Source: an uncultured Planctomycetota bacterium (GTDB lineage Bacteria; Planctomycetota; B143-G9). From it: a DNA stretch of 64,000 bases. Below are positions 1,071-56,631 of this stretch, piece after piece. Each line of letters starts with the position of its first letter. Position 1 is the first letter of the stretch. Location: NCBI GenBank assembly GCA_964571525.1, contig CAZNBY010000003.1, forward strand, positions 40,308 through 104,307. Reading direction: 5' to 3'. The position numbers and the translations under genes were made by a program. Under the pieces are notes generated by a model. It was not told the origin of the DNA. It saw nothing but the letters and a program-made list of their open reading frames with translations, and did not search any database.

Positions 1071-2384
1071 ATGCGTCTCACCCACTCTATATGGTTGGTG
1101 TTTATGCCGCATAACGCTTGTCTGACACATCGTTCTTGCCTTTTCGCATTGCTTCTATGTATGGTGTTCGCTTTTCAGTCGTTCGCATGGCCTGAGGAGT
1201 CAAAAAGGCTTAGCGATATTGAGGTCAATACATACAAGATTCCCTCTGTGGTTGGCGCATATAAAAAGCAGGGCAAGGAGGAGTTGAGAGAGATAGAGAT
1301 TGCCGACTTTTGGGTGCGAAGCGGCAGCAATCTGATTTTCACGCGAGGCGATTACGAGCAGACTGGCAAACTGCTCGTCTATTCCCTCAATACTCAGAAG
1401 AACGAGACAAGCTTGCTGCTCGAAATGACCGGTGTGCATGGTTATCTGCCCAACCGAAAGGGTTGGCTGTATATCTGTAGAGATGACGAAGAGGACGGCA
1501 GGATTATTGACAGGCGCGAGTATCGCGGTGGGTTTATCTGCAAAAGCTTCAGCTCGGTGTTGCCAAGTGACTCTCGCATAGTTAACTGGCATCGTGCCTC
1601 AAGCGAAAGTCGTTACGCCTGCCTTTACTCACCCGAGACGAAACAGCTTGGCATTTATGACATGGCGAAGCTGCTGCCGACCTATACGAAGATGCCAGAC
1701 AACATTGATATCCACATCGTTGACTCTTGCACCGATGACTATATCTACTTGCATGCGACAGAGTACGATAACGGAGCCGCATCGTACAAGCATCAGATGC
1801 TTATCAACGAGCAGGGGAAGTGGGTCGAAAGAGACTACAAGCACTACAACATGATGTTCGTCTTTCCCTACATCATCAAGTTCACACAAAGTGCAACCGA
1901 TACGGCGAGCCTTTCAGTGTCTGAAATTGGCAAGACGGAGGACAAGAACCTGACCGAGGCATCAATAAAACCGCCTTTCTTCGCCAAGGCGCTTCCCTCT
2001 GGCCTTATGCTTGTTTCGACAAACGGTCTTTCGCACAAGAAGGATGGTTTCACCTTAAAGGATAGGGACTTCGACTATTGGGTTCAGATGGCGAACGAGG
2101 AGTTTCCCCGTATGAAGGGAAACGCAAATGGTTTGCTGCTGGGTATAAGCCCCGAGGCGATTGTCTATCGCAGATCGAACGCGATCATTGTCAACACTCG
2201 CGAAGTTGCGCAGTTTAAGGGAAAGTTCGTATCCTTCGACTGGCTTGACAACACCCTGTTTATCGTATCAAAGGAGGATGAAGCTTACGAGCTAATCGTC
2301 ACAGAGATTAAGCTCCCTCACAAAATCCCATTCCTTCGCAACTCCATGCAAGGCTCTCATCCCCCCACCATTTGGTGCCAGTAG
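1071..2384 (+). CDS. Hypothetical secreted protein of 437 aa, no recognisable domain
   Basis: Long ORF whose N-terminus has a hydrophobic stretch (SCLFALLLCMVFAFQSFA) consistent with a signal peptide. It converges on the downstream operon, leaving only a 5-bp gap to the stop of the next gene. The start codon is uncertain. Confidence 0.5.
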   Translation: MRLTHSIWLVFMPHNACLTHRSCLFALLLCMVFAFQSFAWPEESKRLSDIEVNTYKIPSVVGAYKKQGKEELREIEIADFWVRSGSNLIFTRGDYEQTGKLLVYSLNTQKNETSLLLEMTGVHGYLPNRKGWLYICRDDEEDGRIIDRREYRGGFICKSFSSVLPSDSRIVNWHRASSESRYACLYSPETKQLGIYDMAKLLPTYTKMPDNIDIHIVDSCTDDYIYLHATEYDNGAASYKHQMLINEQGKWVERDYKHYNMMFVFPYIIKFTQSATDTASLSVSEIGKTEDKNLTEASIKPPFFAKALPSGLMLVSTNGLSHKKDGFTLKDRDFDYWVQMANEEFPRMKGNANGLLLGISPEAIVYRRSNAIIVNTREVAQFKGKFVSFDWLDNTLFIVSKEDEAYELIVTEIKLPHKIPFLRNSMQGSHPPTIWCQ

Positions 2385-2389
2385 GAGGA

Positions 2390-3652
2390 TTAGTCATTAA
2401 CCTCACCGTGTGGTGGTCTTGCTGCGAATATAATCAACTTTAGCTCTGTATCATCAATCAGTTCATAAATTGGCCTGATACCAGATAGTCTTTCGCTTTC
2501 AGTAATAATGATTGGCACACCCTCTCCGCGTTTGTCCATGATGAAGTTACGCCTGCAATCCTCGATTTGCGTTTTCAAAGGGCATCGCGCAAGCAATGAT
2601 GTCAACAGCTCATTTCTTGAAGACTGTCTTTCTGAAAGGCTGCTGATCGTCATTGTGTTAGGAATTGTGCCTGGTGAGAATATTTCGATGCGATCGGCGA
2701 ACATGTGTAATCTGATCTTCGATCCATATATCGAATAGTCTCTATGCGCAACCGCGTTTGTCACAGCCTCGAAGACTGCGTTCATGGAGTATTGCGGTAT
2801 TTCTCTCCTGTTTGGTGCCTTGATACCGAAGATGCGCATGTTCTTATTTACGAAGTCGCATGCCTTTGATATCTGAAAGTCCAACGGACCAGTTACTTCC
2901 TGTGCATCCAGTTGATATGACGCGTTCCGTTCAACACCACGATACGCGACTGCTTGAATGAAGGCGCTCTTAATGTATTCGTGAGGGGTTTTGCATGTCA
3001 TCAATATGCCGCTTACAGTCGGATAGATCTTTCCGTTTTCATCTCTTGTGACGAGACAAGCCTTTAATAGAAAATCCCGATCATCAACAGGCGACAACGG
3101 GGTTCTGAAGCGATTCCAAAGGTCATGTTCCATGCAATCGAGTGGTGCATTTGGAACAGATTGCTCATCAAATCTTATCAGGCGTACTTGGCTCCTTTGC
3201 TGGAACAATCTCGCAAGATAGTCTGGCGACATTTCACGCTTTGAGCTTCCTTGCCTGATGAAGTAACCATTTGGGCTTTTGTGCACAAACAGGCTTCTTG
3301 GTATCTCGATTTTGATTATTGACCTGAAAGTGCCTGTTGTATCGGGCAATTGCATTCGGAAAGTACGAAAGACTACCGGTGGCTTTATGCTGTCGCTGCA
3401 AACTTCGAAGACATACTTTTCTGCTGCTTCAAGGAGATCGGTTGGGATGCCCTCAATGTCGCGTGTCTTGTCGTTGACACCAAGCACGACGACAGCTTCG
3501 CATGTATTTGCGATCGCAGCGATTTCATCAGCAAGGTCACTCCTTGTCGGGTCTGACACGCTGTGGCCTTTGAAGCGTAACGATTTCAATTCGAGACTTG
3601 AATCCTCCCCGAGCCGAATTTTATCTAACAGATGTTCAGGGCTATCGAACAT
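2390..3652 (-). CDS. ATP-binding protein with a Schlafen-like AlbA_2 (divergent AAA) N-terminal domain and a C-terminal HATPase_c_4 domain, the family often annotated as a RecG-C-terminal-like transcriptional regulator
   Basis: The N-terminus (LELKSLRFKGHSVSDP...IAAIANTCEAVVVLGVND) has the architecture typical of AlbA_2/Schlafen divergent-AAA domains. The C-terminal region carries the motif AVTNAVAHRDYS characteristic of HATPase_c_4. Its start overlaps the stop of the upstream gene by 11 bp (3642-3652). Confidence 0.7.
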   Translation of the reverse strand: MFDSPEHLLDKIRLGEDSSLELKSLRFKGHSVSDPTRSDLADEIAAIANTCEAVVVLGVNDKTRDIEGIPTDLLEAAEKYVFEVCSDSIKPPVVFRTFRMQLPDTTGTFRSIIKIEIPRSLFVHKSPNGYFIRQGSSKREMSPDYLARLFQQRSQVRLIRFDEQSVPNAPLDCMEHDLWNRFRTPLSPVDDRDFLLKACLVTRDENGKIYPTVSGILMTCKTPHEYIKSAFIQAVAYRGVERNASYQLDAQEVTGPLDFQISKACDFVNKNMRIFGIKAPNRREIPQYSMNAVFEAVTNAVAHRDYSIYGSKIRLHMFADRIEIFSPGTIPNTMTISSLSERQSSRNELLTSLLARCPLKTQIEDCRRNFIMDKRGEGVPIIITESERLSGIRPIYELIDDTELKLIIFAARPPHGEVND

Positions 3653-6515
3653 TTCTGCCCTCCAGTGCTATGCGATCGTAACGCTGTTTGAAGGCTATCT
3701 CGCCCCCTTCCATGATGTCACATATTGTCTTGCGTACCTTTTCGACCTGAAGACAATCAGCAACACTCTGCTCAGTTTGACCTTGTTTTGCATCTAAGGC
3801 GACGACCAGTTCTGCATCGCCGTTAACAACGATATTTGCGTTGTGAGTTACGACAATAACTTGGCGATTAGGCTTTATACGGCGTAACTGCTCCACAATC
3901 AGATCATATATCAATCGGTTATCAAGATCATCTTCTGGTTGATCGAGAATCAAAGGTGAATCATCGTAAGAAAGAAAGAACGCGAGCAGCGTGGCAGTTT
4001 TCTGCCCTGGTGAACCGTCACTAATGGGGTTGTACTTACCATTAGATGAAAGGAAGCTGACTGCAATCGAGTCTTCTGGATACCAAAAAGCGAGCCTATC
4101 GAGCACTTCAGGTGACAACTTTGAAAGGTAGTTCGCAAAACGAAGGTCTTTCGCTGTTGTGTTTTGACCGTTCTTTGCATATTCCCTAATCGTGTCCTTG
4201 AACCTTTTTAGCTTCATTTCCATCTCGGTTCTGTCAGGATTGCCTTCATATAAATTATTAAAAAGACTATCAATATCCTTTGCGAATCTGTCCTGTTCCC
4301 TACCAATTAGTGTGCTGAAATTTCTCTCGCTCTCTTGTTTGTTGCCGAACAATTTGATTTCGATTCTAACAAATTTATTGTTTTTGCATATATCTTCAAC
4401 AGTTTTTCGCCTCATTTCTGTTAAATTATTGCGCATGTAGAAAATATTGCTTAGTATCTGCTCTGATTTGGCTTCAAGGTCTGCGATGATTATCTTGTTA
4501 GCTTCTTTCTCTTTTATCTGTTTTTCAATGGCCTGATGTTTCTGTATGAGAAATCCATATTCACTTGGATCTGATACGCCTTTTATCTTGAGTTGTTCTA
4601 TAAGGTTAAAGTGTGCGGTTTCTGTGTTCTTCACATTGCGTTGCCATTCGGATGCTAATCTGTCTTGCAGCCATTTTTCTGCTGCCGCTTCTGCACTTGA
4701 GGCGAGTTTGGATATGTTGAGGGATATCTCTTCAAAGACCTCTGCTGTTTTCTCTAAACGAGAAAGCAACTCACTTTCTTCTACTCGGCCAAGGTCGAAT
4801 GATGAACGGTCAAGTGTATCAGGCAATACTTCATTGCCTGTTTTTCTCAGTTTGCTGACAATGTCTGTTAGTCTGCTTTCCCATGACTCAAAAGCGCCTA
4901 CCTGTCTGCGACATCTTTGGTATTCCTTAAGCAGCTCTGAGTGTCCATGTTGCTCGAACACTTTAATCTTCTTCTGAATATCATCTAAATCACCCTTCAA
5001 ACGCGTGATTTCATCAATAGAAGCGGTGAGCTCGCGGATTTTTGCCCTTGTCGTTAAGTAGTTTCTCTCTGCAGCAACGCGTTCCTCCTCAAGTTCGCGA
5101 AAGCGTTGACTTGCTTCGTCAATCTTTTTAATCAGCGCCGATGGAACACCAGCGATCTGGAATATCTGCTTTTGGCTATATATGCTCGCGGGGAACCGTG
5201 AAGCAACATCTCCCTCACTCTTCTTCCATGTGCCATCGCTTTGCTCTTCCTCTATTGGATCCAGAGTGCCTTGCACATTCCATTGCACACGATATAGAAC
5301 TTGACCCTTTCGATAATAGACACGCACTACAGAATCGTTTCGCAAAAGCCCTGACTCATAGTCGTCTTTGGAACGCCTGTATTTAAGGAAGTCGCTTTTC
5401 ATTTCCTCTGGAAGCTCGTCCAACTCATTATCTCTGCGCAAGGCAACGCGAATAAGCTCTACAATTGTTGACTTGCCTGTCCCTCGTCCCCCAATAATCG
5501 CGTTCATACACGGATTGAAACTCAGCACAAAGGCCTTGTTGTTGCCTATATATTGTGCCCTTTCGATCTCGATTCGCTCGATATATGCTCCAGTATGATG
5601 GTTAAGATCGGAATCAGTTGAAACCTCGTCAAAACGCTTAACTGACATTTCTCCATCAAGAAGCGCTAACCTTAATCCTTCAATGCATGGAGTTCCCATC
5701 TTGACCCATGTGTAGTGGCTCCCTGGGTAGTTGCTGTGCTGCGATGAATCGGGATGATGCGAGTCTGAGCCAATTACAATCGTAGGTTTCTTGTTGGCTT
5801 CATAGAAAATCTTAGGGATATCCTTTTTGCGGTCAACTACTTCCATCGCATACAGCTTATCTTGTATGTTACTTGCGTCAGGACCTTTCATGCTGAACAA
5901 GCCAGCGTCTTTGTCAGAGTGCGCGGGAATAGGAATGCCGCCCGCTTTTTCAATCTCCCGAATCACTTCAATCATTGTCTTGGTCGTTGCATGCTCGCAA
6001 TACCCATTCTGCCCTTTATAACCAACTGCTCCAATCAGCTTGTTAATATCGCTTGTAGTGGTCTTTTGCCCAAATATAGCAAGTAGGTGTATGCCGCCCG
6101 ATACACTTATTTCGATACCGGGGAATAGGTATAGCTCGCGGTAGTCCTTGGGCTGCTCTGCTTTTAGCTTGCTGAGGGCTTGTTTCAGTATGTCTATGTG
6201 ATCGCCCGAGTTATGATCTGTTACTGCGACGCAGTCAATTTCAGCCTTCATGAAGCCAAGGAGCCAGTCTTTTGCAGTAATTTGCTTACTCGAAGTTTGG
6301 TGCGTTCCTTTTCCGTAATCACAAGAACTTGGTGTATGAGCATGGAAGTCGAACTTCCACCAACGAGCACCAACCCAGTTTATCTTGCTCATCTTATCCC
6401 CTTGCTTATAGGTCTGAACTGCGATTATATGGGCGTACTGTATCAGCGATTCGTCACCTATGTCAATAAACGCAGTTGTTGAGCGTATTGTGCTCCCTTG
6501 TGAATCAGGTACCAC
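3642..6515 (-). CDS. Fusion protein: N-terminal PHP-family phosphoesterase joined to a Rad50/SbcC/SMC-like ABC ATPase with a long coiled-coil insert (957 aa)
   Basis: PHP motifs are present: FDFHAHTPSS (HxH), VAVTDHNS, GIEIS, IPAHSD. Walker A is IIGGRGTGKSTIV. About 400 residues rich in heptad-like K/E/L/R sequence follow (coiled coil). The C-terminus carries an ABC signature-like SPGQKTATLLAF, Walker B LILDQPEDDLD, and an H-loop VIVVTHNANIV. Confidence 0.8.
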   Translation of the reverse strand: MVPDSQGSTIRSTTAFIDIGDESLIQYAHIIAVQTYKQGDKMSKINWVGARWWKFDFHAHTPSSCDYGKGTHQTSSKQITAKDWLLGFMKAEIDCVAVTDHNSGDHIDILKQALSKLKAEQPKDYRELYLFPGIEISVSGGIHLLAIFGQKTTTSDINKLIGAVGYKGQNGYCEHATTKTMIEVIREIEKAGGIPIPAHSDKDAGLFSMKGPDASNIQDKLYAMEVVDRKKDIPKIFYEANKKPTIVIGSDSHHPDSSQHSNYPGSHYTWVKMGTPCIEGLRLALLDGEMSVKRFDEVSTDSDLNHHTGAYIERIEIERAQYIGNNKAFVLSFNPCMNAIIGGRGTGKSTIVELIRVALRRDNELDELPEEMKSDFLKYRRSKDDYESGLLRNDSVVRVYYRKGQVLYRVQWNVQGTLDPIEEEQSDGTWKKSEGDVASRFPASIYSQKQIFQIAGVPSALIKKIDEASQRFRELEEERVAAERNYLTTRAKIRELTASIDEITRLKGDLDDIQKKIKVFEQHGHSELLKEYQRCRRQVGAFESWESRLTDIVSKLRKTGNEVLPDTLDRSSFDLGRVEESELLSRLEKTAEVFEEISLNISKLASSAEAAAEKWLQDRLASEWQRNVKNTETAHFNLIEQLKIKGVSDPSEYGFLIQKHQAIEKQIKEKEANKIIIADLEAKSEQILSNIFYMRNNLTEMRRKTVEDICKNNKFVRIEIKLFGNKQESERNFSTLIGREQDRFAKDIDSLFNNLYEGNPDRTEMEMKLKRFKDTIREYAKNGQNTTAKDLRFANYLSKLSPEVLDRLAFWYPEDSIAVSFLSSNGKYNPISDGSPGQKTATLLAFFLSYDDSPLILDQPEDDLDNRLIYDLIVEQLRRIKPNRQVIVVTHNANIVVNGDAELVVALDAKQGQTEQSVADCLQVEKVRKTICDIMEGGEIAFKQRYDRIALEGRNVR

Positions 6516-6695: not shown

Positions 6696-6728
6696 TAAAA
6701 ACGAAAAGGGCTGCATTGCTGCAGCCCT
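6696..6728 (-). terminator. Intrinsic terminator following the tRNA-Val/tRNA-Asp pair
   Basis: Perfect 9-bp inverted repeat agggctgca/tgcagccct (6707-6715 and 6720-6728) with loop ttgc. On the minus-strand transcript a T-rich tract follows (reverse complement of ccccgtaaaaacgaaaa). Confidence 0.55.
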
Positions 6729-6737
6729 GTATTTATC

Positions 6738-6814
6738 TGGCGAGGATGACGGGATTCGAACCCGCGACCTTCGGATCGACAGTCCGATGCTCTATCCAAT
6801 TGAGCTACATCCCC
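6738..6814 (-). tRNA. tRNA-Asp, anticodon GTC
   Basis: The reverse complement folds as a cloverleaf. Acceptor stem is GGGGATG/CATCCTC, discriminator G, and CCA is encoded. Anticodon stem TCGGA/TCCGA carries loop CTGTCGA. The T-loop is TTCGAAT. Confidence 0.85.
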
Positions 6815-6826
6815 GCAATTTGTAAA

Positions 6827-6903
6827 TGGTGGGCGATACCGGACTCGAACCAGTGACCCCTTGCTTGTAAGGCAAGTGCTCTAGCCGACTGAGCTAATCG
6901 CCC
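6827..6903 (-). tRNA. tRNA-Val, anticodon TAC
   Basis: Reverse complement is GGGCGATTAGCTCAGTCGGCTAGAGCACTTGCCTTACAAGCAAGGGGTCACTGGTTCGAGTCCGGTATCGCCCACCA. Acceptor stem is GGGCGAT/ATCGCCC and the anticodon loop is CTTACAA. Confidence 0.85.
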
Positions 6904-6976: not shown

Positions 6977-8095
6977 TTACAGATTGTAGTCGTCATCGTC
7001 GTCTGGCGGTGCGTCGAGGTTTAGTTTGCTGCGCATCTTCGCAGGTGACGCAATACGCCATGCTTCCGCAATTAGTGCCATCATTGCGGGTGGTTTTATG
7101 CCGATTTTTCCGCTTTCAGCCATTAACGCGGCAAGGTAGTCAAGGCCGGCATCTACTTTGCCAAGCTCGAAGCTGAGGCTCGTTGCCTGCGCAAGCGAGT
7201 TCATTAGCATAGGTATCTCGTTCAAATCGCGCGCCCGTTCGATGACTGTGTTAATAACCTCTATCGCCTTATCGGTTTGCCCGCTGTTTGCAAGCTGGGT
7301 GGAAAGCTGATCGAGCGACGAAAGGTGCGAGGGCAGGGCACCGATGTTTGCGAATAGCTGCCCAGCGGTCTTTGTTTGGGAAATTGCAGTATCGTCATCA
7401 CCTGCGTACTCAACGCAGCGACCATAGACGAGCCTGACATGCGCCTCATCCCACTTCCATCCCCTCTGATTCGCGATTGATACTGCTTTTACAAAATGCT
7501 GTTCTGCATCATCAAGGTCGCCGAAATGCGAAAGCTGTTCGGCGGCAAGCGCGATTGTCAACGGATCGTCGCACTGGTTCGCACATGAATTTGCTACTGT
7601 GAGCAGCAGATCCTCTGCACGCTCTGTCTCAACTACAAGCCCAAGGTTTCGCGCAGCAATTACAAGACCCTCGCACGCGGCAAGCTTAAGATGAGAAGGA
7701 GGCTCTGATTTTAGGGTGCGATATGCATGCGTGAAGTATGTTAACGCGGCTTCATCTTGTTGCATAATCTGAAGCAACTCGCCGCGCTTCAAATTCAGTT
7801 TGGTCTTCAGATCCGGTGGAACATCGTCGGGCGTTTCGAAACCCATTAAAGTGTTAAGCGCGTCAGAGTGCTTTCCTCCTGCCTGACTGATATCCGCGTG
7901 CAGAAGTATATACTCGATCTTGAGATCCGATGAGTTGGTCTCTATTTCGTTCGCGCAAGATTTGGCTTCAGCGAATCGCCCCATTCGAAGCAGTGCAGTG
8001 GCTCGCGCCCAACATCCAGAAAATGACTTTTCCTGAATGTTTGCAAGATCGGCAAACTGCCCTTTGTGAAGCATGTCGTCATACCGTTCTCTCAT
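6977..8095 (-). CDS. Hypothetical helical, TPR-like protein of 372 aa
   Basis: ORF overlapping the ScpA stop by 17 bp, so it lies in the same operon. Sequence is helical and repeat-like with an acidic C-terminal tail (DAPPDDDDDYNL). It shows no similarity to ScpB. Confidence 0.55.
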   Translation of the reverse strand: MRERYDDMLHKGQFADLANIQEKSFSGCWARATALLRMGRFAEAKSCANEIETNSSDLKIEYILLHADISQAGGKHSDALNTLMGFETPDDVPPDLKTKLNLKRGELLQIMQQDEAALTYFTHAYRTLKSEPPSHLKLAACEGLVIAARNLGLVVETERAEDLLLTVANSCANQCDDPLTIALAAEQLSHFGDLDDAEQHFVKAVSIANQRGWKWDEAHVRLVYGRCVEYAGDDDTAISQTKTAGQLFANIGALPSHLSSLDQLSTQLANSGQTDKAIEVINTVIERARDLNEIPMLMNSLAQATSLSFELGKVDAGLDYLAALMAESGKIGIKPPAMMALIAEAWRIASPAKMRSKLNLDAPPDDDDDYNL

Positions 8096-10322: not shown

Positions 10323-11267
10323 ATGCATCGAACAATGATTTGTGTGTCTCTGTTTATCTGCCTCACATTAATTGTTTGCAACACAGAAGGAGCTATTACT
10401 GTGCCAGGCACTAATTGCATCGTGAATCTAAGCGCCTGGACATTAAGTAAGCTGGGACCAAGCAATGAAAAACACAACGCCAGCGTGGGCACAGTTGAAG
10501 GAGATAATTTCATCGGTGACTTTGACGAAAATGGAAATCCAAATCTACGAGTGGCTTATGATTTATGGGTAAATCCTGATAACAACCATCCTGAGCCAGT
10601 AGAGACAGATCCACCCATACCTCCCTTCATAACAGCGATAACGTATAATGTCAGCATCTTGTATGTCAATTCAGAAGGTGTGGAGCAAGAGATTATTAAC
10701 GCGGAGATTGGTTACGACGAACAAACTACTGCAGTTGAACAGGCAACCAATATCACAGGATACCAGCCAGGAGGTAACATCCTTGTAGCGGATTCAACCA
10801 ATGAACCAATAAGGTACGATCCCGACGTCTTCTTTAATGCTCTACCATCAGGCAGACTGATCATTACGGTAACATGCACGAAGTGCGGAGGAACCGCTAC
10901 AATTGACAGATTGGTGTTCTATAGACATACGAACATCACGCGAGTTATCCTTGTTTCATTCGATAATGTCTCAAATCCTGGTAATGATCTTGCGGTAGGA
11001 GACAATTTCACGGTTAGCGTAGGTTTCACTCCAAGAGATTGGGTGAATTCATATAACATTTACACAGATGTGATCGATAAGGTTCGTGTCTCAATAAATG
11101 GTCCGGCCCCATCAACCATCTACCAAGCAACGAATCCACCTAACAAGATTACCTCCGACCAATATCAGATCGCAACGGGAGGAGCGAATCCCAGCGCAAA
11201 GGCGTGGGGTAAAATGCAAGATGAAGGAGGATACGTCACCGATACAGAGGATCTGGTGTTTCAGTAA
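10323..11267 (+). CDS. Secreted hypothetical protein of 314 aa
   Basis: Signal-peptide-like N-terminus (MHRTMICVSLFICLTLIVCNTEGA). Composition is rich in Asn, Thr and Gly, typical of beta-rich extracellular proteins. A strong RBS precedes the start. Confidence 0.6.
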   Translation: MHRTMICVSLFICLTLIVCNTEGAITVPGTNCIVNLSAWTLSKLGPSNEKHNASVGTVEGDNFIGDFDENGNPNLRVAYDLWVNPDNNHPEPVETDPPIPPFITAITYNVSILYVNSEGVEQEIINAEIGYDEQTTAVEQATNITGYQPGGNILVADSTNEPIRYDPDVFFNALPSGRLIITVTCTKCGGTATIDRLVFYRHTNITRVILVSFDNVSNPGNDLAVGDNFTVSVGFTPRDWVNSYNIYTDVIDKVRVSINGPAPSTIYQATNPPNKITSDQYQIATGGANPSAKAWGKMQDEGGYVTDTEDLVFQ

Positions 11268-11320
11268 TTCAGATCGGCAAGGGGGCATTTATTGCCCCCC
11301 TTACCATAACAAATCGAGCT

Positions 11321-14300
11321 ATGAAATACGCATCGTTTTTGATCATTCTTCTTATGAGCTTTTGTCTTCTCGGTTTCGGCGAGAACGATAAAACCATAGA
11401 TCCACTGTACAGTTTGTTCGAGTCGCTGCCCGACTCTCCCAGTGAAGTCGAATTTGCTTCATTTCTCAATGAGGTGAAGAAGGTGGCGCATTTTAATCCT
11501 GGCATTCCATTCACTTTTAATGGTACATTTGAGACTTCACTGTACAAAATTCTCGGGCTCGGCGATTTCTACGACTCATACTTGCAGAACGACGAACGAA
11601 AATTGGAGCGCAGCCGTGAAAGCGAGGACATATCACTTACTCGCGACAAGCTGAAACAATACTTGCTGTGGAACAGCCTGCCAGCCCTCGTGCTGGAGAG
11701 TAACTGTACCGATCCGAAGAAGGACGACATCAACCTGCGCGTCTCATATTCCCTCTTCATCTGTCGGGCTTATCGTCAGCGGTACGCGGAATCTCTGTTA
11801 AACCCATTCACAAAGCAGATAGCGCAAACGGCAATTGAGGGGATCGAGAAATTCCCGATAAAGAACGATCTTGACAACCGGTATCAATCCTATATCGAAA
11901 ATCGAGCGAATCAGCTTGAAATCGCAGGTGATAACCTTCAGCAGCAGATAGCATCCGTAATGAAACTGGCAAACGAAAAGTCCGGCGATTACCTCTATCT
12001 AATCACCCTGTTGCACTGGTTGGAGTTGAACATTCCGGCAGAGGCGATTTTCGTCAAACCGATTCCGAATGAGATTCTCCTTGAAGTTGACCATTACGAT
12101 TGCTACAGCATAGTGCATGAGTACGTGCAGTCCTGGGTTTTCGGCGATCTCGACAAGCTGTTCATTCCGGACAACGGCGAGCGAATCTTCCGCGATCGTA
12201 CTCCCGGAGTAAACCTGCTTCTTGTATTCGTTGGCTCGTTTCTCGTCGATGCGATCATGAACAGAGAAGACGGCATTGCTGCGCGAAACAGTATACTCTT
12301 CCGATTTCATATAGGAGTCGGCAATCATTTCGATTATTGTGGCTGGCCCAGTTCATTTCTCAATCGATATTCCCGCTACATCAAAGAGTGTCGGCTTGAG
12401 AGAACCTATGGTCAATATGGTAACAGCACTCAGCCGCGACATTTTTTGAAGCTTGTGGAGGAGAGCGAAGGGGCTTCCTGTTGGTTTATCGGCAACTATG
12501 TTCCGGCAACCGAAATCGGCTCAAGAAGAGTGGAAAGCGATTTTGTATATCCGATAATCAAGCCTGTATGTCATCCAAGGTACCAGGGATTTCTGGACGG
12601 TATTGAGAGCGATGCAAAGGAGATCCGGGAATTGCTTGGAAGCACAGATTCGTTCGAATGGAACAAATACTACAGTATAAAAGAACACGATATCGAGCGA
12701 GAATACCCCATCGAACAAACGGTCCATCACAAGTACACCCTTGCTGGGGCTGCAGAGCATCTTGCCGATGGATGGCTCGAGAAAATCATGTTCGGACATG
12801 CAAAGTACAGCGAACCTGTCGAGAAGACCGTTCAACGCCTGGATCGCGCGGTCTATTACCATTACGCGAAGACAAGACTTAGGGTATATCAGATGGCATC
12901 ACCCGGGCCGGTCAGCGATATGTTCTATCCTGTTTTCTACGTTGAAGTTACCCCGGATGCAAGCGTAAGGCCGGATGAGTGTCTCGCTTCTTACATTGTG
13001 AAGGGTAAAGATTGGGTAAGACGCACCAATATTCATTCACTTGCTTATGACTGGTGGTGTCTGGAGCTTGTGGGGTACGATTGGTACAAGGAAAAGCGCA
13101 AGCAGGTTGAAGACCTTGCAGTGAAAGCCAACGCGGATTTTGAAAAGGACTCCAGAGCAACAAACGAAGCAAACTGGAAATGGTCAAGTGAACGTAATGG
13201 AAAATCGATGGAATCCAAGGCGGTTGTGGATCCGGATGCTCCAACTACCGAAGAACTGAAGGCTCATTTCGAAAGAGTCTATATTGAGTATCGCCAGGCT
13301 ATCGAGCAGTTGCCTGACGAGCCTGATGAGAATGATAAGAGGATTTTCTTCGACAAAATGAAGAGCATTCTGAAACTGGTGCCTTCCGCACCGTCAGCCG
13401 TTCGATCAGGACTACCCTGGACAACTCCCCCCTCCGCGTACTGTTTATCTTTCTTCTGTATTCCGGAAATGATGTTAGGTATGCCATTTATGAGACATAC
13501 TCACTTCGCCAGTTCCGTCGGACACACTATTTCCACAACAACGAAAAAGGACTTCTTCATAGAAACCTGCTTTGTAAGACTGCTTCTTGAGGGGGAATTC
13601 GAGCGGAGAATGCTGAGAAACCAAAGTCTGAAGTACTATCTCAAGGATGAAAAAGCCCTTGAGGAATACCGATATCAGGCAGCATTTATCCTGATGGGAT
13701 TGTTGCGACTGCGTGAAAACGCCCTCATTCGCGAGGATCTGCGGGAATCGCATACCCTGCAGATGGCCGAACTCGACAACCTTGACGCAAAATACAAACT
13801 CACAGAACGGTACATGCAATCAGTTAAAGAAACTGAGAAACGCCTTGATTTAGCATCGCTTCCAAACGAAGTTGTGATAAAAAGGCTGAAATCATTTCTT
13901 TTTCCCGGCGACAAGCATTTGCCAGAGCTAACGGCAATGTTGAACTGGTTGTTTTCCACTTGCCCCAACAGTCTGTTTCTGGATGCCGAACCACCAGATG
14001 TTATCCCGGTCAAGGATATCGTCAAATACAATACACTGTTGAGCAGATATGTCAAACCTGATTATCTCAACCAGAAGAAGAACTCCTGGTCAGACAGAAG
14101 AGGCAGAACAATCGCATCTCCGCTTCAGATAGTCACAGATATCAGAGTGCTATCGACGTTCTTCCCGTGTATCATCAATGGCGAAGACGCGAGTCTTCTT
14201 CGAAGCACATATTTTGCGAATGCATTCGGTATGACGATGGGAGACGGAATCGCATTCAATACACTGCGTATTCTTACTACCGGCGAGGCGCAGAAATCGC

Positions 14301-15214
14301 TCGACAAAATCTACAAGACATCGATTTTGCCGACTTGGAAGATGGCCTTTGAAGCGTGTGAGACGCCTGAGTTCAATGCAACAGTAATCAGGGAAGGAAA
14401 GCTCAAGGACATTTGGCTCCCGCTGTACGTAAAAACCACTGAACCGATCGGCACATTCACAAGCGACGACGCATATCCTATTCCTGTGCTATTCTCGCAT
14501 GGACGGGACGAATTCACAAATGCGCTTCTCGACGAGAAAGGTTCAGCGTTCTCTTTCTACAAATCTACGAATGTACTAAAGCAGGATTTTTCACAAAACA
14601 CGAATGATACCTCTGTAAGGCGGTACAAGTGCCCACTCAGACTGAATGTGCCGTACGATTTTTCCACCGACGCATTGGCAGTGAGAACGGTTACGACAGA
14701 GCCATGGGAGAGTCCAATACCTGGTTTGTCGGACGAGCAGTTTTCTGGTCTCATGAAGGGAGTCAAAACTAATATTTACGAACGCGTGGTGTTTGCACAC
14801 TACCCAAGCGTGACCTGGAAGGCTTTCTCAAGCAAGGAAAACTTTTCTCCATTATTGAGGAAACCCGGTAGATACAGTAACTTTGTGGCATATTCTATCC
14901 TGCCGGGTGAAGATGATGTGCCAGATCAATTTGTCCCTGGGATGCTGAATTCTTCAGGCAACGGTCTATTCGATAGGGCTGTTCCACAATCCAATGGACA
15001 GTATATCTACCCGCATATTCTCAGAATTCGGGAAAATCCTACTTGCCAGGCCATGCTTGACACTGGCGACGAATTGCTTGAAGAAGTCAGGAAACTCGCA
15101 AGATTGGAAACAGAGAACATCAGTGAGAAGAAGCGTGAACTGTGGGAAGAATGGGGAGGACGCGGCGATTTCATATACTGGTTGTTTGATATGCCGATCT
15201 GGTCGGGGGAATGA
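11321..15214 (+). CDS. Large secreted hypothetical protein of 1297 aa
   Basis: Signal peptide MKYASFLIILLMSFCLLGFG. No recognisable catalytic motif. It shares a conserved core of about 150 aa with the downstream 642-aa protein (HFLKLVEESEGASCWFIGNYVPATEIGSRRVESDFVYPII against QFELLKEGETGPAYFIGMHSPCNERGAEFIETDSIYPIL). Confidence 0.7.
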   Translation: MKYASFLIILLMSFCLLGFGENDKTIDPLYSLFESLPDSPSEVEFASFLNEVKKVAHFNPGIPFTFNGTFETSLYKILGLGDFYDSYLQNDERKLERSRESEDISLTRDKLKQYLLWNSLPALVLESNCTDPKKDDINLRVSYSLFICRAYRQRYAESLLNPFTKQIAQTAIEGIEKFPIKNDLDNRYQSYIENRANQLEIAGDNLQQQIASVMKLANEKSGDYLYLITLLHWLELNIPAEAIFVKPIPNEILLEVDHYDCYSIVHEYVQSWVFGDLDKLFIPDNGERIFRDRTPGVNLLLVFVGSFLVDAIMNREDGIAARNSILFRFHIGVGNHFDYCGWPSSFLNRYSRYIKECRLERTYGQYGNSTQPRHFLKLVEESEGASCWFIGNYVPATEIGSRRVESDFVYPIIKPVCHPRYQGFLDGIESDAKEIRELLGSTDSFEWNKYYSIKEHDIEREYPIEQTVHHKYTLAGAAEHLADGWLEKIMFGHAKYSEPVEKTVQRLDRAVYYHYAKTRLRVYQMASPGPVSDMFYPVFYVEVTPDASVRPDECLASYIVKGKDWVRRTNIHSLAYDWWCLELVGYDWYKEKRKQVEDLAVKANADFEKDSRATNEANWKWSSERNGKSMESKAVVDPDAPTTEELKAHFERVYIEYRQAIEQLPDEPDENDKRIFFDKMKSILKLVPSAPSAVRSGLPWTTPPSAYCLSFFCIPEMMLGMPFMRHTHFASSVGHTISTTTKKDFFIETCFVRLLLEGEFERRMLRNQSLKYYLKDEKALEEYRYQAAFILMGLLRLRENALIREDLRESHTLQMAELDNLDAKYKLTERYMQSVKETEKRLDLASLPNEVVIKRLKSFLFPGDKHLPELTAMLNWLFSTCPNSLFLDAEPPDVIPVKDIVKYNTLLSRYVKPDYLNQKKNSWSDRRGRTIASPLQIVTDIRVLSTFFPCIINGEDASLLRSTYFANAFGMTMGDGIAFNTLRILTTGEAQKSLDKIYKTSILPTWKMAFEACETPEFNATVIREGKLKDIWLPLYVKTTEPIGTFTSDDAYPIPVLFSHGRDEFTNALLDEKGSAFSFYKSTNVLKQDFSQNTNDTSVRRYKCPLRLNVPYDFSTDALAVRTVTTEPWESPIPGLSDEQFSGLMKGVKTNIYERVVFAHYPSVTWKAFSSKENFSPLLRKPGRYSNFVAYSILPGEDDVPDQFVPGMLNSSGNGLFDRAVPQSNGQYIYPHILRIRENPTCQAMLDTGDELLEEVRKLARLETENISEKKRELWEEWGGRGDFIYWLFDMPIWSGE

Positions 15215-15553
15215 TAAAACACTGAACCAGTATAACATCCCGCTTACAGGCGCACAGATGCGAAGGTTATAGACTTTGGGAAGCAAACATGTAGAGATCG
15301 TTAATTGTGCTGCCCCCACTTTATGGTCCAGTCGTTATGAGAGTTTTAGGTTTCACAGATAATCGTTTGTCAACCTCATCGGGCGAAGGACTGAGCATAG
15401 CGAAGGCCGAAGCCCGATATTGCGTCGCGTACTTTGCGGGGGGCATGTATCCATGCGAACTGTGCGGCCGCATTGCCTCCCCCTCACCTTAAGAACATGT
15501 GGTAGTATTACTTTTGCAATGCTTTCGGACGAGGTTATCAAAGTGGGTTTAGA

Positions 15554-17482
15554 ATGAGAAACATGCTCGCTCTTACTCTTATCCTGATGAACTTGATCTT
15601 GCTCACTAACCTTCCTCTGTACAGTGAGGAGGATGTAGACAACACACCTGATTGGTACGCAGTGTATCAGATGCTGCCCGAGATTCCGACCGATGATGAC
15701 CTCGACAGGTGCTTTAACTACTTAAACGAGCGGATTCTGCTTCGTGCGCCGGATCCGTCTTTTGTTGCTAATTACCAGTCCCATAGTCGCGTAATCAACA
15801 GGGTGGTTCCTGTGAATCTAAAAGAATATCCCCTCAAGCGTTTCTCGCGGTCGGAAAACATGCCGCCACCGGGGTTTGAGGGAAAGACGAAGAGGGAGGC
15901 TTGCCGGTCGTCCTACAAGTCCCTTTCGCTGCAACTGCTTCGCGCCCGGCTGATATGCGAGGGCAAAATGGCCGAGGGTGAAAGGGATATGACGCTGCTT
16001 GAAAAGGCGATGCTCTGCAGGTACGCGATTGCGTTAATTCCATGGAGTTCTACCGAATGGCCGATCCTATGCAAGCGAGAGGTGAACGACTGGTACGCGG
16101 AACAAAGCAGGAAACTCGATGAGAGATTTGGTCTTCTGAAGGCGATAGACAACAAGATAACCTCGGTATGCGATGGATTTGGGATTGTTGGTGCCACCTT
16201 TGAAGAGAGACTCGCGAAGTGGGAGGCGATTGCAGACGAACCTAACTTGGATCATTTCAAATCCTCAGCGCTTCAACATTGGCTTGTCATAAACTGCACC
16301 CCCGATGACATTCTGAAGGACCCGAAGAATGTACCAATATCATTTAGAAATGGTGCTCCTTCCATAATAGAGGACTATGTGAAACGCAGTTTTTTTAAGA
16401 TGGAGGATGTAAATGAAGTGCGAGGCGATAGGGAAAATCTCAACTCATCGGTATTGAAGGGAATGCACCTACGAAGGTTTCTGTGGACTTTGCTTGATGA
16501 CAAGTTCAAGTGCATTTTGGGTCACAACTCACTCCGATTTGTCAGCATGAAGCCTGAACACATACCATTCTTTTCGTCAACACAACGCAATCAGTTTTCA
16601 AAACCAAGTGTCACTTATGATTATTCGGTTGTGAACAATTCACGGATAGATGAGAAGCGGTACCAGTTCGAGCTACTCAAGGAGGGAGAAACTGGGCCTG
16701 CATACTTTATCGGGATGCACAGTCCCTGTAATGAACGGGGCGCAGAGTTCATAGAGACAGATTCGATCTATCCCATTCTTTTCTGGCATACGAACTGCCC
16801 GTACGGCGCAGAGATGCTGAACAGCATGTACAGGATAGATTTCGGCTTTGCGCCTTCGATCAATCGCACAGATCTATTCTATTGGTCTCAGAACATGCAC
16901 TTTCTGAACGAGGAACCGGACAAGACCGACAGAAACCTGTTTACGATAAACAGAGACTTGGAGTATGACCTTACCAACGAAGGCAGAAACAAGCTGATGA
17001 ACGATGCTGCTCTTCGGAAGATGTACACCAACGGGTCATCATTCAAGACGGACGAACCACAAATGCCCGACGGTTACGACTTCCCCGTTGTTTACAAATA
17101 CAACCGCGCAAGGTACAAAATCTACGGTTTTATGCACTATGATGCCGAGACTTGCCAGCCCGGGGCGCGGTTTGCCCTGTGTTTGATGGTTGTTACACCG
17201 CCGGATGATTCCCAGCCGTATAAGGTGTTGATTTGTCCCACATCGAAGAAATACGCGACCACAATCCGCAAGATGGGGCTTTCACACTACGGCGATATAG
17301 TATGGACAGCTGCTGAGTTCAAGACGCATGCCGAGAACATGGAACAGCTTAAGTGGATAGAGGATTATACAACCAAGCTGCATTACAGACAGAAGGAGGA
17401 AAATGAGGAGGCAAAGAAGAGAATCGAAGCCTTCAAACGCCTGTTTCAGTATATTCCCCAAGATGCAAAGAATCCAAATTAG
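15554..17482 (+). CDS. Secreted hypothetical protein of 642 aa, partial paralog of the 1297-aa protein
   Basis: Signal peptide MRNMLALTLILMNLILLTNLPLYS. Contains the shared conserved block described for the 1297-aa protein. Confidence 0.7.
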   Translation: MRNMLALTLILMNLILLTNLPLYSEEDVDNTPDWYAVYQMLPEIPTDDDLDRCFNYLNERILLRAPDPSFVANYQSHSRVINRVVPVNLKEYPLKRFSRSENMPPPGFEGKTKREACRSSYKSLSLQLLRARLICEGKMAEGERDMTLLEKAMLCRYAIALIPWSSTEWPILCKREVNDWYAEQSRKLDERFGLLKAIDNKITSVCDGFGIVGATFEERLAKWEAIADEPNLDHFKSSALQHWLVINCTPDDILKDPKNVPISFRNGAPSIIEDYVKRSFFKMEDVNEVRGDRENLNSSVLKGMHLRRFLWTLLDDKFKCILGHNSLRFVSMKPEHIPFFSSTQRNQFSKPSVTYDYSVVNNSRIDEKRYQFELLKEGETGPAYFIGMHSPCNERGAEFIETDSIYPILFWHTNCPYGAEMLNSMYRIDFGFAPSINRTDLFYWSQNMHFLNEEPDKTDRNLFTINRDLEYDLTNEGRNKLMNDAALRKMYTNGSSFKTDEPQMPDGYDFPVVYKYNRARYKIYGFMHYDAETCQPGARFALCLMVVTPPDDSQPYKVLICPTSKKYATTIRKMGLSHYGDIVWTAAEFKTHAENMEQLKWIEDYTTKLHYRQKEENEEAKKRIEAFKRLFQYIPQDAKNPN

Positions 17483-32107: not shown

Positions 32108-35100
32108 CTATTCTTCAGTTTCCTGCGCAAGCACAGCCCGCACCTTATCAGATAGGCTCTTGACGGTGAAAGGCTTTTGCAGAAAGCTAACGCCTTCATC
32201 AAGAATGCCTTGGTGCGCAATGACATTATGAGTATAACCTGACAGGAAGAGCACCTTTATACCAGGGCGAAGCTCGGCGATCTTCTCGTACAGAACCCTA
32301 CCATTCATATCAGGCATGATGACATCAGATACAAGCATATCAATTCTTGACTCGTAATTGCGAGCGATTTCGATTCCCTTTATTGGGTTTTCTTCTGATA
32401 TCACCTGGTATCCCTTGTCACGCAATACCTCACACATCAGTGCCCGAACCGAATTATCATCTTCGACTATAAGAAGCGTCTCGCCACCTAACTTCGCAAG
32501 TCTTTCTGATTTTGGCTTTACGACTTCAGTCGCAGACTCATCGCAAGCTGGGAAATGCAGCTTGAAACATGTGCCTCTGCTAATCTCACTGTACACCCAG
32601 ATGCTACCTCCGTGTTGTTTGACAATGCCATGCACTGTCGCAAGGCCGAGTCCAGTGCCTTTTCCTGTGGACTTTGTAGTGAAGAACGGCTCGAATATCC
32701 TCTCTTTCACCTCTTCGGGCATTCCCTCACCGGTGTCGGTTACCGCGAGCCTAATATAGCGCCCAAGCTTTAGTTCTGGATGTTGCGTGGCATATTCTTC
32801 GGTAATCTCCACCTCTTCAGTTTCAACAGTCAGCATACCTCCGTTTGGCATCGCATCCTGCGCATTTACAGCAAGATTCATCAGAATCTGTCGAAGCTGG
32901 CCGACATCAGCGCGTATGTACGATCGGATATCACCGAGAATGCTCTTTATTGCGATATCCTCTCTAACCAGGCGGCGAATCATACCCCAGAATGCCCGTA
33001 TTTCGTCGTTGAGCGATACAACCTTCACTTCAAGAATTTGCTTACGGCTGAACGCCAATAACTGCTGAGTCAGATCCTTAGCGTGAACAGCAGCCTCGAA
33101 GATTCTCTGTGCACGACGCTGGTCTGTGGAGTTATCAGGCAACCTGTCCTTCAGTGTCTCTGAATAGCCAAGAATCGGCGAAAGCACATTGTTGAAGTCG
33201 TGAGCAATACCTCCCGCAAGTTGACCGATGGCCTCTAATTTCCTTGCTTGCTGAAGCTGGTTTTCTAACAGAGCTTTTTCTGCTTCGATCTTCTTCGTCT
33301 CGGTAATGTTCTTGTTGTGCGAGATTATGTACTTTGGCTTGCCGTCATCACCACAACTAACTGCCGCACGCACAGAGACCCACACTATGTCGCCGTTCTT
33401 CGCGATAAAGCGTCTTTCGAATTCAACGGAGTCTGACTGGAAGTTGATTAACTTGTCAAACATCTGCCTTGATAGTAAAAAGTCATCGGGATGTGTATAT
33501 TCGTAAATACTGCGCGCGAGCATTTCGACCTTGTCGTAACCAAGCATTCCAGACATTTCGTCGTTAACCCGAAGAATGCTTGTGTCGGGCGCGAGAATAA
33601 TCATACCAACTGGAGCATGCTCAAAAGCACTTCTAAACCTCTCTTCCGTCTCACGCAAGGCGGCCTCACTGCGCTTTCGTTCGCGCAAGTCAATCAGCAC
33701 TGTGGTGTTGCCAAGTATCTCACCTTTTTCGTCTCTGATAGGCGCGGCATAGATTGAAAAGGGGATGTTTTCTCCACTCTTATTTATTCTCTGTATCTCA
33801 GTACCATTGAAGAATCTGCCTTCACGGATCCATTCAAGATACATTAGGTATTCGGCCTTGCTTTCATCTGAAACGGATGGTAGCATTCTGCCTATTACCT
33901 CGTCACGGCTCCAGCCAAGTATCTGTTCAGCAGCCTTATTCCAGATAATCTGCACGCAACCATTCTTGTCGAGCGCGTAAACTGGCAGAGGCACAGCGTC
34001 AAGAACCGCATTAAGTGTTGCGAGTGCTGACCGTAAAGACTCCTGCGCGTTCTTCTGTTCGGTGATGTCAAAGTGGGTGCCAACCATGCGCAATGGTTTT
34101 CCCTCTTCATTTCGCGCCACGATTTTCCCTCTGTCAAGAATCCATCTCCAATCACCGTTCTTATGCTTCATGCGGTAAATGCTGTCGTACTTTTGAGTTG
34201 TTCCGTTCAAATAAGCAAGCATCACATCACGGCGAAGTGTAAAATCTTCGGGATGAACAAGTTGCTTATGCGCATCTGAGCTTGGTTCGATCTCATTGAG
34301 TTCGTAACCTAACATTGCCGCCCATCGCTCGTCGTGGTATATCTTGCCAGTCGTTAAGTTCCAATCCCATAGACCAAGATCGCCACCTTCTATCGCAAGA
34401 TCGAGTCTTTCTTCGCTCTCTGCTAAAGCTTCAGCAGCGATCACTCTTTCTGTGATGTCGCGCACGATTCCACCAATACCTACTCGTCCATTCGCCAATG
34501 GAACGGGGAATTTCACAGTCTCAAATACTCTGTCTCCGACCCTCTGGTCATCAATGATTACTTTGCGGGATTTTAATGCAATCAGGTCAGACTTGTGGCA
34601 TTCTTCAGCAGCCTCAGGCGGCATTAATTCGAAGTCGCTCTTGCCGATGACATCTTGAATAGACTTGCCGAAATACTCAGCCAGATGCTCGTTGCACAAT
34701 ATATGCTTGAAGTTTTCGTCTTTGATATAAATCAGATCGGAAGTCGCGTTTACAAATGCTCTATAGCGAGCTTCGCTTTCAACAAGCGCTTCAGTGGCAC
34801 GCCTACTTTCTGTAGTATCAGCGAACACGCAAGCAAACTGGTTAGTGGAAACTCGAAATGCAGAAACTTGAAAATACTTGTCGAATTCGCGTGCATAGCT
34901 TTCGAAAAACGCTGGTTCCCCTGTAAGTGTAACTCGCCCATAAATGTCTATCCATTTTCGTTCTGTTTCTGGGAGAGCCTCTAATACTGTCCTGCCTATC
35001 AGGTCATGTGCCCTCAACCCGGTCATCTTTTCAAATGCGGGATTCACAGCGAGAAAGCGGTAATCCACAGGATTACCTACCTTGTCACAGATAAGCTCGT

Positions 35101-38833: not shown

Positions 38834-38989
38834 AAAGTTGAGTTAAGAAAACTGCAGACGCAACGCGATGAACACGACAGAATCGTGCATCACAAACAAC
38901 CACCACCTGTAGTATACACGCATCATGTCATCATCGAAACTTAGGTGGGAAGCAGAACGATGACAGGTTTCTTAAGCTGCCTCCTGTGT

Positions 38990-56399: not shown

Positions 56400-56631
56400 A
56401 GAACTCTCCTGGGTACTTTATTGTTAGGGATTATGAAATTGCGTGGTAAGAACAAAGGCAAGCTGCAGCCATGCAGGCTGATACGGCGAAACAAGCACTT
56501 GATAACGGTTGGATAAGTCAGACTTCCCCCAATCAAGCGATGTATCTCATTGTGTCTGGATCTGCAATTATTATACGAATGCAGAAAATTAGTCAAGTGC
56601 GCTTCAGTTCAAGCGAGAAAAAAGGCACGAT

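Follow-up and report, generated by a model that had tools for sequence, protein, structure and literature searches.

What does a protein do in which a metal-dependent phosphoesterase and a split ABC-type ATPase are joined in one chain, and does it work alone? The question is raised by a locus in a 64,000-nucleotide (nt) stretch of DNA, here called the window, from an uncultured Planctomycetota bacterium (lineage B143-G9; GenBank assembly GCA_964571525.1, contig CAZNBY010000003.1, positions 40,308 to 104,307 of the forward strand). A sequence-only reading, made from the letters and a list of open reading frames (ORFs), had singled out the ORF at 3642-6515 as a single-chain analogue of Mre11/SbcD plus Rad50/SbcC. 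The analysis described here leads elsewhere. Positions 2390-6392 of the minus strand are best explained as a two-gene trlF-trlG operon, a paired variant of the anti-phage Ppl family that was probably acquired horizontally near tRNA genes. As a whole, this reading is considered reasonably probable, and its parts differ in strength: the identity of the genes as a TrlF family member plus its conserved partner TrlG is close to certain, a role in defence is likely, and a specific sensor-effector coupling between the two proteins is tentative.

Identity and extent of TrlF

Judged by family models and homology, the protein belongs to the TrlF/Ppl family over its full length, and TrlF is a sister of the anti-phage protein Ppl. 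The NCBIfam model NF045780 (TrlF family AAA-like ATPase) is matched at 612.9 bits, passing its curated cutoff of 350, and the alignment joins residues 49-949 of the 957-amino-acid (aa) form of the ORF to profile positions 2-943 of 944. The equivalog model of the anti-phage protein Ppl itself, NF042955, is covered from end to end (model positions 1-882 of 882) at 552.2 bits, under its cutoff of 1000; the other TrlF relatives tested against this model score between 510 and 626 bits. The PADLOC Ppl model, in which Ppl is represented as a single protein, matches with an E value of 3e-135. Weak PADLOC matches to AriA, PtuA, GajA and LmuB fall on the ATPase part of TrlF, none of them full-length, and no Ppl structure is found among the PDB sequences that TrlF matches.

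The reading frame on the minus strand is indeed uninterrupted over 3642..6515 and counts 957 aa from a GTG at 6515. Its start lies elsewhere than had been assumed: in all probability translation begins at ATG 6392, which yields a protein of 916 aa. The NCBIfam and PADLOC family-model matches begin at residue 48-49 of the 957-aa form, and the top 120 homologs, 915-925 aa in length, have the equivalent Met as their first residue. A ribosome-binding site precedes the ATG, and a promoter-like site lies inside the supposed N-terminal extension of 41 residues, between the terminator of the upstream tRNA genes and ATG 6392. Residue numbers of TrlF given below refer to the 916-aa protein.

3642..6392, minus strand: trlF coding sequence, 916 aa plus stop; matched by the NCBIfam TrlF, NCBIfam Ppl and PADLOC Ppl models
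6397..6403, minus strand: ribosome-binding site AAGGGGA, 4 nt before ATG 6392, from reading of the sequence
6437..6466, minus strand: promoter-like site of the sigma-70 kind (TTGACA, 18 nt, TG-TACAGT), a consensus match only

Relatives of this protein are numerous. A word-indexed search returned 3,687 homologs at E<=1e-5. When 1.84 billion representatives were scanned exhaustively with HMMER, 1,123 clusters at the 50% identity level reached E<=1e-30, and the best 150 of these match from end to end with few exceptions. The nearest database relative of the window protein is about 50% identical. Within species-representative genomes of GTDB, mostly metagenome-assembled and recovered with the window protein as query, 52 TrlF loci were found in many phyla. 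A profile search had been proposed by the sequence-only reading as a way of learning whether the fusion of PHP domain and ATPase recurs, and the 1,123 clusters answer that it does, under names that already exist. The implied novelty of the architecture is thereby lost, as it belongs to a curated family of more than 1,000 clusters at 50% identity. It is not a new enzyme class, since it is already catalogued and the Ppl of E. coli has been characterised biochemically.

The overlapping partner gene trlG

Directly downstream of trlF, and overlapping its end by 11 nt, lies a second gene that the sequence-only reading had overlooked. From its domains and motifs, its product TrlG is a stand-alone protein with a Schlafen domain followed by a GHKL-type ATPase, in which the predicted nuclease motif is intact.

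2390..3652, minus strand: trlG coding sequence, 420 aa, overlapping the end of trlF by 11 nt; supported by Pfam, synteny and fold matches
3185..3652, minus strand: Schlafen-like domain of TrlG, residues ~1-156, with E16-x4-E21-x-K23 and the box 'AAIAN' at 45-49
2423..2785, minus strand: GHKL-type ATPase domain of TrlG, residues ~290-410, with N-box E295/N299/D305, P327-G328 and G376-x-G378

Pfam assigns SLFN_AlbA_2 to residues 16-142 (E 1.6e-14) and HATPase_c_4 to residues 310-404 (E 4.7e-18). Invariant residues of TrlG comprise E16, E21, K23, A48 and N49, together with E295, N299, D305, G376 and G378 of the GHKL part. The Schlafen and GHKL motif residues are kept in 37-38 of the 38 paired loci, and across relatives the box at 45-49 reads A-A-[FMI]-A-N. 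The structural model of TrlG has a mean predicted local distance difference test score (pLDDT) of 75, above 90 in the N-terminal domain, with lower confidence in the GHKL part. A full-length fold match is found in the AlbA_2/HATPase_c_4 protein DIP2311 (3lmm). The nuclease domains of SLFN14, SLFN13, SLFN11, SLFN5 and SLFN12 and the tRNase domain of SAMD9 are further fold matches, and weaker ones are the ATP-binding domains of PDK and histidine kinases (GHKL). The PADLOC pAgo model matches TrlG residues 40-398.

The notion of a self-contained single-chain enzyme is difficult to reconcile with this arrangement: the partner gene overlaps trlF, is predicted to be translationally coupled to it, and encodes what Photorhabdus genetics name as the growth-arresting component.

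Conservation of the pair

TrlG is found directly downstream of TrlF, on the same strand, in 37 of the 44 non-self loci that have enough downstream sequence. These downstream homologs are 46-58% identical to the window protein and are separated from trlF by -7 to +38 nt, most often with an overlap of 4 nt. Pairwise distances of TrlF and TrlG are correlated (r=0.81, a value that none of 2,000 permutations reaches), and the mean distance is lower for TrlG (0.45) than for TrlF (0.57), which makes TrlG the more conserved of the two. Paired loci occur across the whole TrlF tree, with solo forms interspersed among them.

The two forms differ in where they are found. The paired form occurs mainly in genomes and metagenome-assembled contigs of environmental bacteria, whereas the solo form dominates the plasmids of clinical Enterobacteria. 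Among plasmid records, 1,146 carry a TrlF/Ppl homolog, 829 of them conjugative, mostly from Escherichia and Klebsiella. A close TrlG accompanies TrlF in just one of the 1,146, from Burkholderia thailandensis, where it follows straight after TrlF; the Enterobacterial plasmid forms are thus solo, like Ppl.

It could be asked whether the two genes only happen to move together, TrlF working like solo Ppl and TrlG, often annotated as 'HTH transcriptional regulator' or 'RecG', being a separate Schlafen-GHKL protein of defence or regulation. This is the most serious competing explanation, and a number of observations speak for it. Solo TrlF/Ppl proteins are common and keep all motifs, the plasmid records are nearly devoid of close TrlG, and 60,692 stand-alone Schlafen-GHKL proteins have been reported. 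In Photorhabdus, moreover, toxicity requires TrlG, and no trlF mutants were recovered. Independent travel is harder to square with the fixed order, common strand and overlaps seen in 37 of 44 loci over many phyla, with the strong co-divergence of the two proteins, and with the insertion of the pair as a unit in differing contexts. TrlG also has no helix-turn-helix (HTH) domain after its GHKL part, its domains reaching up to residue 404 of 420. On balance, two independent systems are considered unlikely, and the two genes are taken here as one operon.

Other genes were considered as members of the system and set aside. A tetratricopeptide repeat (TPR) gene (6977-8095) and an ORF of 437 codons (orf437, 1071-2384) accompany the pair in same-species contigs (L001-L003) only.

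The ATPase head and its helical insert

The AlphaFold2 model of TrlF is confident (mean pLDDT 83.9, predicted template modelling score 0.69) and bears out a structural check that had been proposed for the ATPase. Residues 266-428 and 670-916 come together as one ABC head, and SMC and Rad50 heads are its top fold matches.

5109..5597, minus strand: N-terminal half of the ABC head, residues 266-428, with Walker A GGRGTGKST at 301-309 and Q-loop YSQKQ at 405-409
4386..5108, minus strand: helical, coiled-coil-like insert, residues 429-669, from DSSP helices; without zinc hook
3645..4385, minus strand: C-terminal half of the ABC head, residues 670-916, with SPGQK at 794-798, LILDQPEDDLD at 814-824 and H850; phmmer match to Rad50 3qkt

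The ABC motifs (Walker A G301-T309, the Q-loop, S794-PGQ, D817-D824 and H850) vary little or not at all across 60 aligned homologs of 46-51% identity, and the paired loci keep them too. Among solved proteins, P. furiosus Rad50 (E 4e-6) and the heads of SMC proteins are closest in sequence. In fold, the heads of SMC, MukB, JetC, Rad50, RecN and RecF come nearest (Foldseek E 4e-11 to 1e-7), with TM-scores kept low by the several domains of the query and by its flexible arms.

The split of the ATPase into two halves was thus correctly recognised. The long coiled coil said to separate them turns out to be moderate. In the model, the insert of about 240 residues consists of helices 429-481, 484-521, 537-580, 582-603 and 611-669 as assigned by DSSP, with arms of about 90-130 residues each, far below those of Rad50/SbcC. 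The loop at 522-536, which joins the arms, has a conserved motif, P524-D-x-L-D-x-x-x-F532-D. The suspicion that the apex has no zinc hook was well founded: across the 60 homologs, the insert shows neither a CxxC nor a Cys that is conserved.

A further peculiarity is found in Walker B, which reads D-Q-P-E throughout the TrlF/Ppl family (residues 817-820, window 3942-3953). The Gln, present in 60 of 60 and 46 of 46 sequences, occupies the position after the Walker B Asp where the catalytic Glu is usual. By analogy with the 'EQ' mutants of ABC proteins, this suggests a nucleotide-binding or sensing switch and not a fast motor or rapid hydrolysis.

These features bear on the original proposal, which in its simplest form would make TrlF a housekeeping DNA-repair enzyme, a single-chain SbcCD or Mre11-Rad50 analogue acting on hairpins and double-strand breaks of the cell's own chromosome. 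Such an enzyme would share with TrlF an ATPase whose nearest sequence and fold relatives are the Rad50, SMC and RecN heads, a fused metal-dependent phosphoesterase with conserved ligands and, if Ppl is a guide, an action on DNA 3' ends. In Rad50/SbcC with Mre11/SbcD, too, an antiparallel helical insert divides the ABC head, and a metal-dependent nuclease acting on DNA ends goes with it. The kinship does not extend further, and TrlF is not a member of the Rad50/SbcC family. In TrlF the nuclease is PHP-like and fused, in contrast to the calcineurin-like separate subunit of the repair complex; the CxxC hook and any conserved insert Cys are missing; the arms are short, with an insert of about 240 residues against many hundreds; Walker B is D-Q-P-E; and no Mre11/SbcD-type partner is encoded among the genes neighbouring trlF in the window. 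The conserved partner is instead a Schlafen-type nuclease, and the characterised homolog is an anti-phage protein. The remaining evidence on repair comes from the genomic context, which for Rad50/SbcC is one of repair and for TrlF one of defence.

The N-terminal PHP-like domain

5598..6392, minus strand: PHP-like metal-phosphoesterase domain, residues 1-265; assigned from ligand pattern, model and CehA/McbA match

Nine putative metal ligands (H17, H19, D25, H60, E94, H102, H158, D210 and H212) are invariant or nearly so in the 60-homolog alignment; among the paired loci 37-38 of 38 keep them, as do all 8 solo loci. In residues 10-250 of the AlphaFold2 model, strands and helices alternate, and the conserved His, Asp and Glu residues lie at or just past strand ends, a layout that in the model is the one expected of a PHP barrel. 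A sub-threshold match of the N-terminus to the NCBIfam CehA/McbA metallohydrolase model (E 4e-10) agrees with this. So does an alignment by hhalign with the PHP domain of the window's own DnaE, in which motif II alone is aligned, weakly (VAVTDHNSG / IAITDHGN, E 0.024). Together with the end-to-end homology to Ppl, these observations form the basis of the PHP assignment.

The domain is a divergent one, and at the sequence level the assignment is weaker than had been assumed. Pfam PHP is non-significant on the whole of TrlF, and among 13 N-terminal domains it matched only one, at E 0.053; a search of PDB sequences with a profile of the domain returned zero PHP proteins. The N-terminal domain is accordingly a putative PHP domain, proposed from its conserved ligands, its modelled layout and the homology to Ppl.

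One paired locus departs from the conserved pattern. In Candidatus Poriferisodalis sp. (L034:6001-10051), four of the nine ligands of TrlF are replaced (H60L, H158R, D210E, H212S), and every catalytic residue of the adjoining TrlG is intact. From these substitutions, the nuclease activity of TrlF may have been lost in this lineage. A different kind of departure is seen in Buttiauxella massiliensis (L035:6007-8747), where the TrlF/Ppl relative is 841 aa long and the remaining match continues in another frame or past stops; judged by its sequence, it is probably a decaying copy.

Relation to characterised systems

The closest characterised relative is Ppl of E. coli. In the summary available for it, Ppl is a single-stranded DNA 3'-5' exonuclease that senses 3'-OH ends, the PHP domain being the exonuclease (PMC12904381). 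The same summary states that nucleoside triphosphates (NTPs) bound at the PHP and NTPase domains are inhibitory, and that the enzyme is switched on by NTP depletion plus the 3'-OH ends that arise from phage infection (PMC12904381). The primary reference, which PMC13434339 cites, is Xu et al., Mol Cell 2026. The phage protein Bas63 gp130 counteracts Ppl. TrlF resembles Ppl from end to end, with a PHP-like domain and an ABC-type NTPase with helical insert, the same metal ligands and the same nucleotide motifs. It differs in scoring under the Ppl cutoff and in having an overlapping, conserved Schlafen-GHKL partner, whereas Ppl is described as a single-gene system. The earlier suggestion of an ATP-dependent cleavage of DNA ends or foreign DNA can be evaluated against this relative: ends and foreign DNA fit what is reported for Ppl, but ATP dependence does not, as NTPs inhibit Ppl and do not drive it.

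The name TrlF derives from the Temperature Restricting Locus of Photorhabdus laumondii, trlR-trlF-trlG (PMC7554251). There, TrlF is a large 'histidinol phosphatase' protein, and TrlG has AlbA_2 at 14-128 and HATPase_c_4 at 298-365 (PMC7554251). After a shift to 36 C the operon is switched on, and growth is arrested (PMC7554251). Among mutants that had become tolerant spontaneously, 11 loss-of-function substitutions fell in the two domains of TrlG (PluDJC_RS01875), others were stop codons or insertion sequences in trlG, and none were in trlF (PMC7554251). The window pair shares the order of trlF followed by trlG and, by comparison of domain positions and not by direct alignment, an AlbA_2 and a HATPase_c_4 domain at nearly equal positions. 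It differs in having no trlR upstream and in its site, which is next to tRNA-Asp and tRNA-Val genes and not between polA and dsbA as in Photorhabdus. In the window, the interval from the tRNA terminator to trlF holds no credible candidate for a short HTH-encoding frame, and 49 related loci have no small ORF in common ahead of trlF.

The Photorhabdus locus could be taken to mean that trlF-trlG is a physiological growth-control switch, bringing about replication arrest on heat or stress, with no part in defence. Its appeal is that induction at 36 C, with an arrest relieved by trlG mutations, is the sole experimental phenotype of trlF-trlG. The study that describes it gives no mechanism and neither mentions phage nor tested for them (PMC7554251). 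A dedicated heat switch would also be expected less readily where trlR is absent, as in the window, or not conserved, as in the related loci; the pairs moreover come from very different habitats and stand in defence islands and in a BREX operon, and the closest characterised relative of TrlF is an anti-phage protein. Defence systems often bring with them a self-toxicity that depends on temperature. A growth switch with no defence role is accordingly regarded as quite improbable, and the anti-phage reading is preferred for the pair.

TrlG in turn recalls the 'Schlatpase' of SLFN-pAgo and the mammalian Schlafen proteins. The signature of the Schlafen nuclease is E(x)4(D/E)xK plus a SAFAN box (bioRxiv 10.64898/2026.05.29.728809), and in SLFN-pAgo a module of Schlafen and PF13749 GHKL domains cleaves tRNA after ATP-driven oligomerisation (bioRxiv 10.64898/2026.05.29.728809). 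Metal-dependent cleavage of tRNA or RNA under ATP-driven oligomerisation has been shown for the SLFN-pAgo of Runella zeae only. TrlG has the same succession of a Schlafen domain and a PF13749 GHKL domain, with E(x)4(D/E)xK and a SAFAN-like box. Unlike SLFN-pAgo, it is a stand-alone protein of 420 aa without an Argonaute core, and its presumed sensor is a separate, Ppl-like protein.

A wider comparison includes Gabija (GajA), PARIS (AriA-AriB), Septu (PtuA-PtuB), Lamassu (LmuB) and Wadjet (JetC-JetD), which like TrlFG pair an ABC-type ATPase as sensor or switch with a nuclease effector; JetC and AriA are among the fold matches of TrlF. The nucleases of these systems are TOPRIM, HNH, Cap4 and others, in contrast to the PHP and Schlafen nucleases of TrlFG. 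The literature search returned no paper that ties TrlG to Ppl or to defence.

Genomic setting and mobility

The pair lies directly 3' of tRNA-Asp and tRNA-Val genes and forms the lowest-GC 4-kb stretch of the window, with a GC fraction of 0.447 against 0.482 +/- 0.014. The tRNA genes are possibly the site at which the pair was inserted.

6707..6728, minus strand: terminator-like hairpin of intrinsic type that closes the tRNA-Val/tRNA-Asp unit and is the upstream limit of trlFG
6738..6903, minus strand: tRNA-Asp(GTC) at 6738-6814 and tRNA-Val(TAC) at 6827-6903, from ARAGORN; a landmark outside the system

In related genomes, the neighbours of the pair point to defence. One pair is followed by HigB and HipA toxin-antitoxin modules and another by an Eco57I-type restriction-modification enzyme. 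The Burkholderia plasmid pair adjoins a PLD-family restriction endonuclease, and a solo TrlF on pBKPC18-1 stands beside a type II restriction-modification pair.

This context completes the evidence on a housekeeping role in repair. A patchy distribution across phyla with more than 1,100 plasmid records, neighbours drawn from BREX, restriction-modification and toxin-antitoxin systems and not from repair genes, and the low GC of the pair with its adjoining tRNA genes are not what would be expected of a repair enzyme. Given this mobility and these neighbours, together with the missing zinc hook and the nature of the partner, a repair function is held to be very improbable, and TrlF is regarded as part of a mobile Ppl-type defence locus.

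In one genome (L059:2037-15058), a BREX operon encloses the pair; its genes run BrxC/PglY, PglX methyltransferase, TrlF, TrlG, PglZ, and a Fic-like gene lies upstream. This is a candidate defence module inserted in another defence module, an unusual arrangement.

A Yersinia phage (OM046624.1, 8630-11218) encodes a distant relative of the PHP-ATPase, annotated there as 'chromosome partition protein', and another is found in a Vibrio phage-like element (PQ189346.1, 10331-12923). Both are about 29% identical to TrlF and are matched from residue 8 to about 905; Ppl-like proteins are thus carried by phages as well.

A proposed division of labour

How might the two proteins work together? TrlF would be the infection sensor and a DNA nuclease, its PHP domain engaging 3' DNA ends and its ABC head serving as a nucleotide-binding switch. 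It would then license TrlG or cooperate with it, and TrlG would cleave tRNA or other RNA, leading to a stop in growth of the infected cell. Such a division of labour fits the role of TrlG as toxic component in Photorhabdus and the Poriferisodalis locus, in which TrlF has lost PHP ligands next to an intact TrlG. The latter case is also better explained by a division of labour than by two independent systems.

Taken further, TrlF-TrlG could be an unrecognised two-component anti-phage system in which a sensor of 3' ends and NTP depletion controls a Schlafen tRNase, much as Argonaute controls the Schlafen-GHKL module in SLFN-pAgo, with the temperature restriction of Photorhabdus being a form of autoimmunity. 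This is a conjecture whose chances are put at somewhat less than even. It would connect three literatures, those on Ppl defence, on the temperature-restricting locus of Photorhabdus and on prokaryotic Schlafen-GHKL effectors, a connection not made in the literature searched. If the two proteins do cooperate, E. coli Ppl would represent a pared-down version of a two-component system, there would be a molecular reason why Photorhabdus stops growing at 36 C, and a further bacterial Schlafen protein would be recognised as an immune effector, as Schlafens are in animals.

Several points weigh against a coupled, horizontally acquired defence operon. The only phenotype reported for any paired locus is temperature restriction, and coupling is deduced from synteny, gene overlap and co-divergence, which any operon shows. 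TrlF may be dispensable for the toxicity of TrlG, because no Photorhabdus suppressor fell in trlF. The mechanism of Ppl is drawn here from one review sentence plus reference titles, and the PHP fold of the N-terminal domain found no confirmation in a domain-level structure search. The sample of loci is biased to relatives that have peptides in common with the query. The window itself has no defence genes flanking the pair; its near neighbours encode a TPR protein, ScpA and a prepilin peptidase. There is also neither an att-like direct repeat of the tRNA end nor an integrase at the locus in the window, for which reason an 'island' is a suggestion only.

Other features of the window

The tRNA-Val/tRNA-Asp unit upstream of the pair is compact and has its own promoter-like site, near consensus (6943-6916, 11 of 12 matches), and its terminator hairpin is a strong one. 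Spurious ORFs over this unit give rise to the typical 'GFEPATF...' pseudo-translations. On the other side of the pair, orf437 (1071-2384, plus strand, 437 aa) is convergent with trlG, with 5 nt between the stop codons; it has no match in Pfam, NCBIfam or PADLOC, and no homolog of it stands beside TrlFG in other species.

Farther away, three consecutive large ORFs of 314, 1297 and 642 aa occupy 10323-17482 on the plus strand, and none of them is assigned to a Pfam family at E<=1e-5. Another four ORFs are giant (2241, 1936, 1886 and 1596 aa) and lie at 32108-44800 and 50739-61422 on the minus strand. In same-species contigs, a Peptidase_C25/PKD protein of 1841 aa is encoded just past the position that corresponds to the left edge of the window.

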